Program-made: the position numbers and the translations under genes
NCBI GenBank assembly: GCA_963815455.1
Contig: CAWFGO010000001.1
Location: forward strand, 1,408,001 to 1,472,000
DNA length: 64,000 nt
Direction: 5' to 3'
Source of the DNA: an uncultured Verrucomicrobiae bacterium
GTDB taxonomy: Bacteria; Verrucomicrobiota; Verrucomicrobiia; Chthoniobacterales; UBA10450
Notes under the pieces: generated by a model
Databases searched by the model: none
Seen by the model: only the letters and a program-made list of their open reading frames with translations
What the model was told of the DNA's origin: nothing
In this document: positions 8,884 through 64,000 of the stretch, piece by piece
Layout: each line of letters starts with the position of its first letter
Numbering within the stretch: position 1 is the first letter of the stretch

Positions 8884-8932
8884 GTAGCACAGGCTTCCAG
8901 CTTGTGGGGCGGGCAGGCGTCTCGCCTGCCGA
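8884..8932 (+). repeat. Solo GTAG-REP, same family as ends of the RAYT insert in carB
   Basis: GTAGCACAGGCTTCCAGCTTGTGGGGCGGGCAGGCGTCTCGCCTGCCGA; 43/49 identical to 62603-62651. Confidence 0.9.
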
Positions 8933-60891: not shown

Positions 60892-60976
60892 CCCATTTAC
60901 TCAATCGTTTTCCGCGCGTACAGCCAAGAATTATCCGTGGGAAAATTTGGCCGCAATGGCGATCTTTCGAACGCCT

Positions 60977-61115
60977 GTCATCCTGAGCGCAGCGAAGGAT
61001 CTCGCGAACGCAGGCGCGCTTGCATGCTTCGATCCTTGTTGCTGCTGGCCAAATGCCGTGAACGCTTGCGCGATAATGGACCCACTGCGGGGTCCCTCGC
61101 TTTGCTCGGGACGAC
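60977..61115. repeat. GTCAT-family palindromic repeat
   Basis: GTCATCCTGAGCGCAGCGAAGGATCTC...GGTCCCTCGCTTTGCTCGGGACGAC. Confidence 0.8.
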
Positions 61116-61172
61116 ACGAATGTGAGTTCGAGCGTGAAGTTCGGCTGATTTGCTTTATCATCCCGCGCGCAG

Positions 61173-64000
61173 ATGCCGCGGAACGATCACATCAAGAAAA
61201 TCCTGCTTATCGGCTCCGGTCCAATCGTGATTGGGCAGGGCTGCGAGTTCGATTATTCCGGTGTCCAGGCCTGCAAGGCGCTGCGGGAGGAGGGGTACCT
61301 GGTCGTGTTGGTCAACTCCAACCCGGCCACGATCATGACCGATCCGGAGTTTGCCGATCGGTACTTATATAGAGCCAATCACGGCCGAGGTCATCGAAGC
61401 GATCATCGAGCGCGAAAAGCCGGATGCGCTTCTGCCGACCATGGGCGGACAAACCGCGCTCAATGCGGCCATGGAGTTGAATCGCAGCGGCGCGCTCGCC
61501 CGGCACGGGGTGAAATTGATCGGCGCCAATGCCCAGGCCATCGCCAAGGGCGAGGATCGACAACTGTTCAAGGAAGCGATGTTGCGAATCGGCCTCGACG
61601 TGCCGCGGTCCGGGATTGCGCGGTCGATTGTCGATGCTAATCGCGTGGCCGATGAAATCGGAAAGTTCCCGCTTATTATTCGCCCGGCATTTACCCTGGG
61701 CGGGAGCGGCGGCGGCATTGCCTACAATCGCGACGAGCTCCAGGAAATCGCCGATCGCGGCCTGTCGCTTTCCCCGGTTACCGAAGTTCTCATCGAAGAA
61801 TCACTCGTGGGCTGGAAAGAGTTCGAGATGGAAGTGATGCGCGACCGGATGGACAACTGCGTAGTCGTCTGTTCCATCGAAAATTTCGACCCGATGGGCG
61901 TGCATACCGGCGATTCGATTACGGTCGCGCCCGTACAAACACTCACCGACAAGGAATACCAAATGATGCGCGACGCGGCCTTCGCCGTGATCCGCGAGAT
62001 CGGGGTCGAGACCGGTGGCTCGAATATTCAATTCGCCGTGCATCCGGACACCGGCCGGATGGTCGTGATCGAAATGAACCCACGCGTCTCGCGTTCGAGC
62101 GCGCTGGCTTCGAAAGCCACCGGATTCCCAATCGCCAAAATCGCCGCGAAGCTCGCGGTTGGCTACACGCTGGACGAAATCAAGAACGACATTACCCGCG
62201 AAACGCCAGCCTGTTTCGAGCCGACCATCGATTACTGCGTGGTCAAGGTTCCGCGGTTCACCTTCGAAAAATTTCCGCAAGCGGACCCGACCCTGACGAC
62301 GCAGATGAAAAGCGTCGGTGAAGCGATGGCGATTGGCCGAACATTCAAGGAAGCGCTGCAGAAAGCGTTGCGCAGCCTCGAGATCAAACGGTTTGGGCTC
62401 TGCGACGACGGCGCCGACAAACATGTCGATCCCGAAACATTGCGCCTGAAACTTTCGGTTCCGAATGCCGAGCGCATCTTCTATATGGCCCAGGCATTCC
62501 AGGACGGCATGTCGATCGATGAAGTCTTCGACCTGACGAAGATCGACCGGTGGTTTCTTCGAAACGTGGCGGAGATTGTCAAGGAAGCGCGCTCTCTCCT
62601 TCGTAGCACAGGCATCTTGCCTGTGGGGCCGGCGGGCGTCTCGCCTGCCGAACTGGAAGCCCCCATAGGCGTTTCCGCCCCTCAATTCCATGCGGTGGAT
62701 CCGCGCGACGCGGTCGTCAGGCCCCGCCGAAACTTGCCGCATTGGGAGCAAGCGGGCGCCACGTATTTCGTAACCTTTCGTTTGGCCGACGCCGTCCCAC
62801 AGGAAGTTCTTCGCCAATGGAAGGAGGAATTGCAGACGTGGATGAAATTTCATCCTGAGCCCTGGGATGCTGCAACCAAATACGAATATCAAAAGCGATT
62901 TCGGGACGATCGGGAGCAATGGCTCGATCAGGGCCGCGGTGAATGCCTGCTCAAGAAGAGTGACATTTCGGGCATTGTGATTGATTCACTGGGACATTTC
63001 GATGGTCAGCGTTATTTGCTGGACGCGTTCGTGGTGATGCCGAATCACGTGCATGTCCTCGTCCAGCCGGTGGCGGGTCAGTCCCTTTCCGATATCCTGC
63101 ATTCTTGGAAATCGTTTTCAGCCAAGGCGATTAATCGCCTCCTCGAAAGGACGGGGCCGGTTTGGCAGGAGGAGAGCCATGACCGAATCGTGCGCGATTT
63201 AGAGCATTTGATCCGCTGTCGCGATTACATCACGCGCAATCCGGAGATGGCGCGGCTGCGAGAAGGCGAATTCGTGTTGTATGCGACCGGAAGACTGGAG
63301 ACGAGTTTAGACTCGACAGGCGGGTCGCCTGCCGGCCCCACAGGCAAGATGCCTGTGCTACAACCGCTCCTCCGCGCAAAAAAGCTGGGCTTTTCGGATC
63401 GGCAACTGGCGGTAGCAGCGAACCGGACCGAACACGAAATCCGCGCCGGCCGGAAATCGGCGGGCATTCTCCCAACCTATCGGCTCGTCGATACCTGCGC
63501 GGCGGAGTTTGAGGCTTACACACCTTACTATTACTCGACCTACGGCGACGAGAACGAGCGGCGCGAGAGCGGCAAACGCAAGGTCATGATTCTCGGCGGC
63601 GGACCGAATCGGATCGGCCAGGGAATCGAGTTCGATTACTGCTGCGTCCACGCAGCATTCGCCCTGCGCGAACTCGGATTCGAAACGATCATGGTTAACT
63701 CGAATCCGGAAACGGTTTCGACCGATTACGACACGAGCGACAAGCTTTATTTCGAACCGCTCACGCTCGAAGACGTGCTCAACATTTACGATCAGGAAAA
63801 GCCGGAAGGCGTGGTCGTGCAGTTCGGCGGACAAACGCCGCTCAATCTCGCCAACGGTTTGAAAGAAGCAGGCGTGCCGATCCTGGGAACGCAGCCGGAG
63901 AGCATCGAGACCGCGGAAGATCGACAATTGTTCGCCGCCATGCTCGACAAACTCGGGCTGCGGCAAACGCCGAGCGGCTCGGCGGTCAGCGCCGATGAAG
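61173..64000 (+). CDS. carB: Carbamoyl-phosphate synthase large subunit with in-frame RAYT insert (1-nt frameshift near 61362; truncated at window end)
   Basis: [98 protein letters not shown]. Confidence 0.96.
62603..63361 (+). mobile_element. REP-flanked RAYT (Y1/HUH transposase) module inserted in frame in carB
   Basis: [19 protein letters not shown]...[11 protein letters not shown]...WKSFSA...[12 protein letters not shown]...YITRNP between 49-bp inverted GTAG-REPs (62603-62651; 63313-63361). Confidence 0.93.

Follow-up and report, generated by a model that had tools for sequence, protein, structure and literature searches.

The stretch of DNA analysed here (the window, 64,000 nt; window position 61361 corresponds to C1:1469361 on the contig that carries it) comes from an uncultured Verrucomicrobiae bacterium whose own genome (G000) is 90% complete. 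Near its end lies carB, the gene for the large subunit of carbamoyl phosphate synthase, and within carB lies a 759-bp unit (window 62603-63361, 253 codons) that begins with GTAG, ends with CTAC, and encodes a REP-associated tyrosine transposase (RAYT) domain between two inverted repetitive extragenic palindromes (REPs). The terminal inverted arms are 49 nt long, are 45/49 (92%) complementary, and have 661 nt between them. The carB open reading frame (ORF 61351..63999, open at its 3′ end) crosses the unit without a stop and resumes after it: the insert held 0 stops in the carB frame, compared with 8 and 7 in the other two forward frames and 5, 9, and 4 on the reverse strand. A chance open frame was rejected on these counts (0 stops versus 4-9 in the other frames) together with the conservation of the frame across species. 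The unit lacks a stop, has no in-frame methionine codon ahead of the Y1 domain, is contiguous with carB on both sides, and does not take the form of a stand-alone, extragenic RAYT gene bounded by a start and a stop codon. Both REPs are coding sequence within the carB frame, and the junctions read R/STG...PVL/Q (C-terminal side ...MPVL/Q), with the slash marking the border. An earlier note made from the sequence had claimed this arrangement, namely the open and resuming frame, the double-hairpin ends, the RAYT lacking a start and stop, and the location in the oligomerization domain of CarB, and each was recovered when the frame was translated and the repeats were measured again.

In the genome, the open frame of carB is 1260 aa long and extends past the window. 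The last 100 aa before the insert aligned to residues 377-471 of Escherichia coli CarB and the 100 aa after it to residues 491-586, placing the insertion point approximately between the equivalents of residues ~477 and ~487, in the oligomerization domain. The Pfam profile of this domain, CPSase_L_D3, was matched only over positions 2-53 of 80 ahead of the insert. The insertion site is a variable surface loop of the CarB oligomerization domain.

The insert carries the motifs VTFRLAD, MPNHVH, WQEESHD, and YITRNP. It scored 27.0 bits against Pfam Y1_Tnp (cut-off 23), 71.2 bits against the NCBIfam model REP_Tyr_transpos (equivalog cut-off 80), and 18.1 bits against the NCBIfam IS200 model (cut-off 55). 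Because the REP_Tyr_transpos score falls under the equivalog cut-off, we refer to a divergent subfamily, and, judged from its sequence, the insert is a divergent RAYT-type subfamily of the HUH/Y1 transposases. In the 79-sequence alignment on which the AlphaFold2 (AF2) model of the insert was built, N148 and H149 were invariant and H151 nearly so, and in an alignment of 21 chimeras (A2) the HUH-region motif and the Y..NP motif (Y314, N318, P319) were invariant. The model had a mean predicted local distance difference test (pLDDT) score of 87.1 and a predicted template modeling score (pTM) of 0.78, with low values only at residues 1-20 and 231-254, that is, the REP-coded parts; the tyrosine fell within helix 200-216, and a helical insert of ~40 residues was present in the RAYT core, after the first strand and ahead of the HUH strand. 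Foldseek placed 4er8_A first (E 3.1e-6, template modeling scores [TM] 0.39/0.58), followed by the ISDra2, IS608, and IS200 transposases, and a profile search of solved structures again returned 4er8_A first (E 4.7e-6); 4er8 is a structure of the RAYT of E. coli in complex with a REP hairpin. An AF2 model of a 433-aa segment of the chimera had a mean pLDDT of 69, with the CarB helices and the RAYT core modeled confidently. Residues 106-130 and 340-358 of this model, which contain the REP-coded peptides and adjoining spacer, had pLDDT <50, the latter range comprising the end of the C-side spacer and most of the right REP peptide.

Each arm of the unit consists of two GC-rich hairpins behind a GTAG foot. 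Folded as single-stranded DNA (ssDNA), the GTAG strand reached -19.3 kcal/mol in the left arm and -17.8 kcal/mol in the right, with a z-score of -4.7 and 0/200 shuffles folding as well; the complementary strand folded more weakly (-16.7 and -15.7 kcal/mol). In our reading of the folds, the arms differ at four positions, two in loops and two in stems where pairing is preserved, and between lineages the stems vary through paired changes (e.g., CACAGGCA/TGCCTGTG, CACAGGCG/CGCCTGTG, CACAGGTT/AACCTGTG, CATAGACC/GGTCTGTG). In the genome, a blastn-short census of this REP family located 26 sites, counting the two ends, several of which were 94-100% identical and most of which lay near ORF ends. As DNA, the RAYT body is single-copy in the genome, the 37 other matches of the unit being to REP ends only. 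The unit combines inverted GTAG-foot REP hairpins that have a cognate dispersed family with in-frame palindromic repeats read as extra residues, and its RAYT cargo exceeds what the latter class contains. Extra in-frame REP-coded segments were present within the linkers of seven related chimeras (L097, L098, L101, L104, L106, L107, L109; A2 columns ~100-170 and ~385-445), and REPs seem to multiply within the nested carB unit. Features of the locus, a solitary REP copy in the window, and the other nested units of the genome are given in Table 1.

Table 1. Features of the carB locus and related units in the genome (window positions unless a contig is named)
Feature	Coordinates	Strand	Basis or remark
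carB 5′ part, N-terminal ~63 codons, in another frame	61173..61361	+	ORF 61173..61640, CPSase_L_D1 residues 7-64
One extra base (frameshift) in carB	61358..61362	+	Frame change; relatives read through
carB, first ATP-grasp half and start of oligomerization domain	61363..62602	+	Pfam CPSase_L_D2, CPSase_L_D3
Left REP, GTAG foot and two hairpins, translated	62603..62651	+	Inverted-repeat arm, ssDNA fold
N-side spacer, 25 codons, fast-evolving, open	62653..62727	+	dN/dS, pLDDT <50
RAYT core, 172 codons (LPHW, HUH, WQEESHD, YITRNP)	62728..63243	+	Pfam, NCBIfam, AF2, dN/dS
HUH (H-V-H of MPNHVH)	63046-63054	+	MPNHVH itself at 63037-63054
Catalytic Tyr codon (YITRNP)	63226-63228	+	Motif
C-side spacer, 22 codons	63244..63309	+	dN/dS
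Right REP, inverted copy of left, translated	63313..63361	-	Inverted-repeat arm, fold
carB resumed, rest of oligomerization domain and second half	63362..64000, on to C1:1473118	+	E. coli CarB alignment
Solitary copy of the carB-element REP family	8884..8932 = C1:1416884-1416932	+	88% identical to left REP
RAYT unit in alaS	C2:124450-125042	-	In frame; two ~23-nt inverted pairs
RAYT unit in metH	C3:170734-171311		In frame; 33-nt inverted repeat
RAYT unit in recG	C5:91074-91712		In frame; 32-nt inverted repeat

We also noted a dispersed repeat of another type, ~35 nt long, in the intergenic region upstream of carB (window ~60973-61010); blastn with window 60960-61125 returned 118 matches in the same genome, many of them 90-97% identical.

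Nested RAYT units in this genome and its relatives

Sixteen matches to Pfam Y1_Tnp (PF01797) were present in the genome, and four of these lay in open frames of 922-1507 aa: carB (1260), alaS (1118), metH (1507), and recG (922). Each of the four nested units has its own terminal inverted repeat, with REP types that differ, and those in alaS, metH, and recG belong to a second, shorter RAYT subfamily. Two further arrangements were observed. The C-terminal third of the MetH frame (C3:169636-174156) holds a REP-only in-frame insert (...GSTGCQPAVAGSLPATS...RQAAETNRLAACAP...) downstream of its RAYT insert, and a stand-alone RAYT at C1:202084-202800 has REP-like repeats in frame between its HUH and Tyr motifs, as described for subclass 2.4 in the available part of Quentin 2018 (PMC6006769).

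A survey of the order covered 41 genomes, the one studied here included (rows from G003, G008, and G015 came from genomes flagged as unpublished, and no conclusion rests on them). Twenty-seven genomes matched the insert, and 27/55 of the matches were in open frames of at least 500 aa. The subfamily of the carB insert (subfamily A) was located in the same carB loop in five relatives (G004, G005, G006, G024, G035), in valS in two (G010, G032), at the C-terminus of a cation-efflux protein in one (G025), and as stand-alone genes in five (G012, G013, G017, G027, G030). The carB loop of another relative (G021) was occupied by the second, shorter subfamily (subfamily B), the one also present in recG, alaS, and metH. 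Comparison of CarB orthologs, which the earlier note had proposed, thus returned occupied alleles in these six relatives as well as empty sites. Specifically, 28 of the 30 loci surveyed at this loop were readable, of which four held subfamily A (loop of 315-336 aa), one held subfamily B (301 aa), one (G018) had a REP pair without a RAYT (98 aa), and 22/28 had neither a RAYT nor a REP pair (61-104 aa). The G006 and G024 loci were cut or shifted in this survey, yet the RAYT was present in both.

Searches of protein databases gave a similar picture. Among proteins of 446-2000 aa, 1576 matched the insert at E <= 1e-10, and the best 120 of these, which we inspected, were nearly all CarB chimeras, ~1313-1402 aa long and contributed by several sources, labeled by their depositors as Verrucomicrobia, Candidatus Udaeobacter, Chthoniobacter, or Chthoniobacterales. 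Annotation pipelines had already given such proteins double names, one source using 'carbamoylphosphate synthase large subunit/REP element-mobilizing transposase RayT'. Both CarB flanks were present in 109 of the best 120 proteins, with all four catalytic motifs in 102/109, and the same carB chimera was recovered from >100 independent assemblies. Stand-alone forms were represented by 4270 matches among proteins of similar length, many of them ~211 aa. In a library of representatives at 50% identity (E <= 1e-3; best 150/10304 inspected), 58 of the best 150 were at least 380 aa long, and 46/58 also matched another Pfam family. The hosts among these 46 included CarB, LeuRS, ValRS, MmeI/Eco57I-type restriction-modification proteins, HsdR, RecG, a DinG-like helicase, XseA, and DprA, along with Mur ligase, PdxA, MqnA, Dtd, poly(A) polymerase, B12-radical SAM enzymes, HypF, and adenosine deaminase. 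Y1_Tnp domains inside housekeeping proteins, which the earlier note had thought worth looking for, are therefore found both in the four genes of this genome and in many other database proteins. Nested RAYT units, of which the earlier note had seen only the one in carB, are a phylum-wide habit, and this window offers a clear and well-conserved example.

We also scanned species genomes in six frames, without gene-caller bias; 389 relatives were returned and the 36 best loci inspected. Both CarB flanks lay in a single open frame at 20 of these 36 loci; at one more (L111) both junctions were in frame and a stop followed later, and another (L113) was cut by a contig end. Both junctions were in frame at 21/21 readable carB-site loci, in addition to the copy in the window, and, summed over 24 elements, there were 0 stops in frame compared with 141 and 216 in the other two frames. 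The subfamily occupied a second CarB site, in the C-terminal half before HPILVD, in L095 and L102, and a third, ~25 aa upstream of the usual one, in L110. REP-only in-frame inserts were present at the C-half site in G005 and G035.

Selection on the unit and its descent

Ratios of nonsynonymous to synonymous substitution (dN/dS) were estimated region by region with the Nei-Gojobori method in five close pairs of carB-site elements. The RAYT core had dN/dS of 0.07-0.11, versus 0.01-0.07 in the CarB flanks. The spacers ranged from 0.24 to 0.71 (N-side) and from 0.05 to 1.34 (C-side), and both stayed open in all five pairs. The REP ends retained 92-98% nucleotide identity (0.93-0.98 for the right REP), with synonymous differences (pS) of 0-0.15 versus 0.13-0.63 in neighboring regions. 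Between G000 and L090, for example, the left REP was 98% identical, the adjoining spacer 47%, and the CarB flank 78%; identity of the N-side spacer was 43-47% between G000 and L090/L091. These patterns indicate three constraints on the unit: one at the protein level on the RAYT; one at the nucleotide level on the hairpins, or else homogenization with dispersed copies; and, for the spacers, the sole requirement to stay open.

Phylogenetic reconstruction placed the six carB-embedded subfamily A copies in one supported clade (88/83; 86% of bootstrap trees) and the valS pair in a separate one (93/79), while the tree of the second subfamily contained host switches among recG, alaS, metH, carB, and stand-alone genes. 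The division of the carB RAYTs into {G000, G004, G024} and {G005, G006, G035} agreed with the host clades, and, across 20 elements, host and RAYT distances were correlated (Mantel rho 0.46; 2/2000 permutations as high), a comparison from which L095 was excluded as being at another site and L105, L107, L109, and L112 as having been missed by the motif pattern. Two pairs were outliers in distance, L096/L100 (flank 0.039, core 0.395) and L104/L116 (0.047, 0.465). Moreover, the core and the flanks differed in synonymous divergence (dS) in some pairs, so the history was not purely vertical. On the CarB tree, holders did not form a single group (6 changes, at least 4 of them forced). The CarB site was empty in G001, a member of the same genus and the sister of G000, and G018, with its REP pair, was the sister of the holder G024 (99/95). 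Several otherwise 'empty' CarB loops had REP scars, in the form of single hairpins (G013, G017), a fragment (G016, G023), or a decayed REP pair (G018), whereas four genomes (G009, G010, G011, G012) shared a common, scar-free loop of 23 codons. Because scars were left in relatives, the losses appear to have been deletions and not seamless excisions. Together, these results point to an element that has long descended alongside carB, has repeatedly been lost through internal deletions that kept the frame, and has at times been replaced, or newly inserted, at this loop.

Explanations for the in-frame unit

The reading that in our view best accounts for the anatomy, the conserved frame, the selection pattern, the distribution, and the scars, and which we hold to be probable, is that a REPtron, that is, a gene for a RAYT/TnpA-REP HUH tyrosine transposase with its two inverted REPs, settled in frame in a loop of CarB, where it persists as an internal domain that is translated but not spliced out, relies on carB for its expression, and is protected because that gene is essential. 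Having no start, stop, or promoter of its own, the unit would be transcribed and translated within carB into one polypeptide, a CarB of ~1,320 residues. The RAYT lacks a start yet is under purifying selection, so its translation would proceed from the carB start; likewise, ribosomes would have to read on through the right REP, since the second half of CarB lies in frame downstream and lacks a separate start. In the AF2 models, the RAYT domain is predicted to be separately folded, on two flexible linkers encoded by the REP hairpins and spacers. CarB would tolerate it because the site is a loop, and loss would be hard because a nonsense mutation, a frameshift, or a sloppy deletion would inactivate an essential gene present in one copy. 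Selection maintains the RAYT, which most likely still binds and cuts cognate REP hairpins in ssDNA; this would serve the upkeep of the dispersed REPs. The unit would mostly be inherited with carB, would sometimes be lost by in-frame deletion, leaving REP scars, and the loop would sometimes be reoccupied by another RAYT lineage. Of the two outcomes envisaged in the earlier note, a tolerated CarB-RAYT fusion that borrows carB expression is thus the likelier state, given the frame conservation and purifying selection.

Several observations weigh against this reading. The domain score is below the NCBIfam equivalog cut-off, and the Foldseek likeness to 4er8, by its TM values, is modest. Conservation of the REP ends could come from concerted evolution with the dispersed REPs and not from selection on the carB copy. 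In the L093/L094 pair, dS was 1.16 in the RAYT core versus 0.38 and 0.72 in the flanks, a hint that lineages may have exchanged the element by recombination. That a domain tethered in a large multimeric enzyme acts as a nuclease is itself a prediction. No RNA runs containing the stretch were listed, versus 18 DNA runs (shares all <=0.09). Lastly, carB of this assembly is frameshifted at ~61360 and, if the frameshift is real, the gene is broken here. The earlier note had considered that a frameshift or stop might part the RAYT from carB; none lies between the two, and the single frameshift, which that note did not mention, is upstream. A tblastn search with the G004 CarB recovered the gene in two pieces, in frames 1 and 2, meeting at C1:1469361-1469363. 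Relatives read ...FADRTYIEPI... in a single frame across this point; seven contig rows in two metagenome runs (X1, X2), from relatives and not from this strain, were one base shorter at 61358-61361; and a single frameshift likewise occurs in alaS of this genome (C2 ~126006-126055), with none in metH or recG over the range compared. For these reasons we take the carB frameshift to be probably an assembly indel arising from long-read error.

The foremost alternative is removal of the unit ahead of CarB synthesis, either by precise ssDNA excision by the RAYT in part of the population or from the mRNA via the paired REP arms, with the in-frame state incidental or a back-up. Y1 transposases of the IS200/IS605 type excise seamlessly, the ends of the unit are perfect-looking substrates, precise excision would restore a normal CarB loop, and presence is patchy among close relatives, as in the empty site of the same-genus G001. 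Under removal, however, nothing would hold the junctions and the drifting spacers open, yet 21/21 loci were in frame and the 24 elements were free of in-frame stops; a startless RAYT with dN/dS of ~0.1 would have to be translated from carB; and the losses in relatives are scarred, as expected of deletions. A scan with Rfam of window 62300-63700 (E <= 1) listed only a small RNA (sRNA) model, at 22.7 bits versus a gathering score of 37.2, on which basis a self-splicing intron or IStron was also rejected. Metagenome contigs (X1-X4) were short, came from relatives only, and were uninformative about junctions or excision in this strain: REP-to-REP joints (e.g., 62639>63332, with 9 letters between) represented REP pairs elsewhere in other organisms, and carB contigs that skipped 62546-63478 were from relatives with other loops. 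Removal at the DNA or RNA level, the second outcome suggested in the earlier note, is accordingly one that we regard as unlikely. An intein was rejected as well, with no Hint/intein family in a Pfam scan of the whole frame and junction residues that do not fit; presumably there is no protein splicing of CarB, and the RAYT domain stays in the mature protein. The description 'intein-like without intein motifs' in the earlier note therefore holds for the missing motifs and is a fair analogy for persistence, but not for mechanism.

Somewhat less likely again is that the RAYT is a domesticated host domain that serves CarB, or pyrimidine or arginine metabolism, and is not selfish. Bertels and Rainey reportedly regard RAYTs as domesticated, vertically inherited genes. 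This general view, as it is put in the available part of PMC8266576, would fit the strong purifying selection on the core and the long co-descent with carB. Against it, the same RAYT clade is present in many unrelated proteins (the 46/58 long representatives with another Pfam family) and also as a stand-alone gene of ~211 aa; most relatives do well with a CarB site that has neither RAYT nor REP pair (22/28); and the REP ends are conserved as nucleotide sequence, with cognate REPs dispersed in the genome. Least credible of all is a decaying carB pseudogene or an assembly artifact, for which the one-base frameshift near the 5′ end could speak, as could a second carB left unassembled in a genome that is 90% complete, and against which stand the remaining 1260-aa frame, otherwise intact and 77% identical to the G004 CarB, the recurrence of the chimera in >100 independent assemblies from several sources, and the similar single frameshift in alaS. 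carB is single-copy in this genome: tblastn of the whole 1260-aa frame against the 90%-complete assembly found no second carB, such as the earlier note had allowed for beside a decaying copy, and the remaining matches were to the RAYT part or reflected weak ATP-grasp similarity.

Beyond the reading of the carB unit as a REPtron translated within CarB, a broader proposal is possible, although we would lean against it at present: nested RAYTs may constitute a mobile-element class in their own right, a 'non-splicing intein' derived from an ssDNA transposon, which is active while tethered in essential enzymes, uses the promoter, start codon, and essentiality of its host, and recolonizes given protein loops, with earlier REP scars perhaps acting as landing pads. 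Such a class would explain the divergent RAYT lineages, the second subfamily among them, at the same CarB loop, the extra REPs in linkers, and the dozens of housekeeping hosts in Verrucomicrobiota and other phyla.

A transposase is usually expected either to lie in intergenic DNA or to disrupt whatever gene it enters; here, complete units have been carried for long evolutionary periods as translated domains of single-copy core enzymes, and the holders include some of the most common bacteria of soil. Should the chimera be produced and active, it would represent a third way for selfish DNA to reside in essential genes, beside inteins and self-splicing introns, would allow REP/RAYT expression without a promoter or start of the element's own, and would account for a large class of proteins that surveys of Y1 transposases have dropped under the heading 'fusion or annotation error'. 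The large domain insertions naturally tolerated in CarB, several aminoacyl-tRNA synthetases, MetH, and RecG also offer maps of permissive sites.

Comparison with known systems

The unit most resembles the REPtrons, as known from E. coli TnpA-REP (4ER8) and from the available parts of PMC3333891, PMC8266576, and PMC6006769, with which it shares the HUH and Tyr motifs, 4er8 as best fold and profile match, GTAG-footed inverted hairpin ends, a single-copy RAYT, dispersed cognate REPs, and mostly vertical descent. The pattern of the carB RAYT (NHVH / WQ / YIxxNP) fits subclasses 2.4 and 2.7 as given in the accessible text of Quentin 2018 (PMC6006769). Unlike the known RAYTs, which are stand-alone and extragenic and have their own start and stop, the carB unit lies within the coding sequence of an essential gene and is translated as part of it; it also has the extra helical insert of ~40 residues and scores below the NCBIfam equivalog cut-off. 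According to the portion of Quentin 2018 available (PMC6006769), unexpectedly long proteins were discarded there as fusions or annotation errors. The same source reports REPs inserted in tnpA-REP genes of subclass 2.4 with the frame intact, of which C1:202084-202800 is an example in the present genome; those cases place a REP within a RAYT, whereas the carB unit is the reverse nesting, of a RAYT within a host gene.

Intragenic repeats provide a second parallel. The accessible portion of Di Nocera 2013 (PMC3733652) describes intragenic GTAG/CGTC REPs, most numerous in Opitutus terrae, and Rickettsia palindromic elements (RPEs) that are likewise in frame. Such hairpins lie in frame in genes whose products are known proteins and add 20-30 residues to them, a situation comparable to the REP-only inserts and scars in the same CarB loop of relatives of our bacterium. 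Noncoding repeats alone are involved there, whereas here a whole autonomous unit, transposase included, is carried under purifying selection. In the available text of PMC3733652 we found no mention of a RAYT within a host ORF.

Like inteins, the unit is a selfish, in-frame coding element in conserved and often essential genes, depends wholly on its host gene for expression, is hard to delete without destroying that gene, and recurs at the same sites across lineages. Inteins end in a C-terminal junction motif of His-Asn plus a nucleophile; the carB unit has neither this nor a Hint family. IStrons are elements of the IS200/IS605 family fused to a group I intron, which makes them harmless through RNA splicing. 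They too are Y1-transposase elements that sit within genes without inactivating them, but the carB unit, at 759 bp, leaves no room for a ribozyme and would be harmless through in-frame translation.

We found no published description of a whole RAYT translated inside a host gene in the literature on RAYTs, REPtrons, and Y1 transposases, a search of articles to which supplements, such as the list of intragenic REPs in Additional file 3 of PMC3733652, could add. REPtrons, in-frame REPs or RPEs in genes, and in-frame REPs in RAYT genes are known already; what would be new, on the sequence evidence, is the whole unit as a translated insert of a housekeeping gene.

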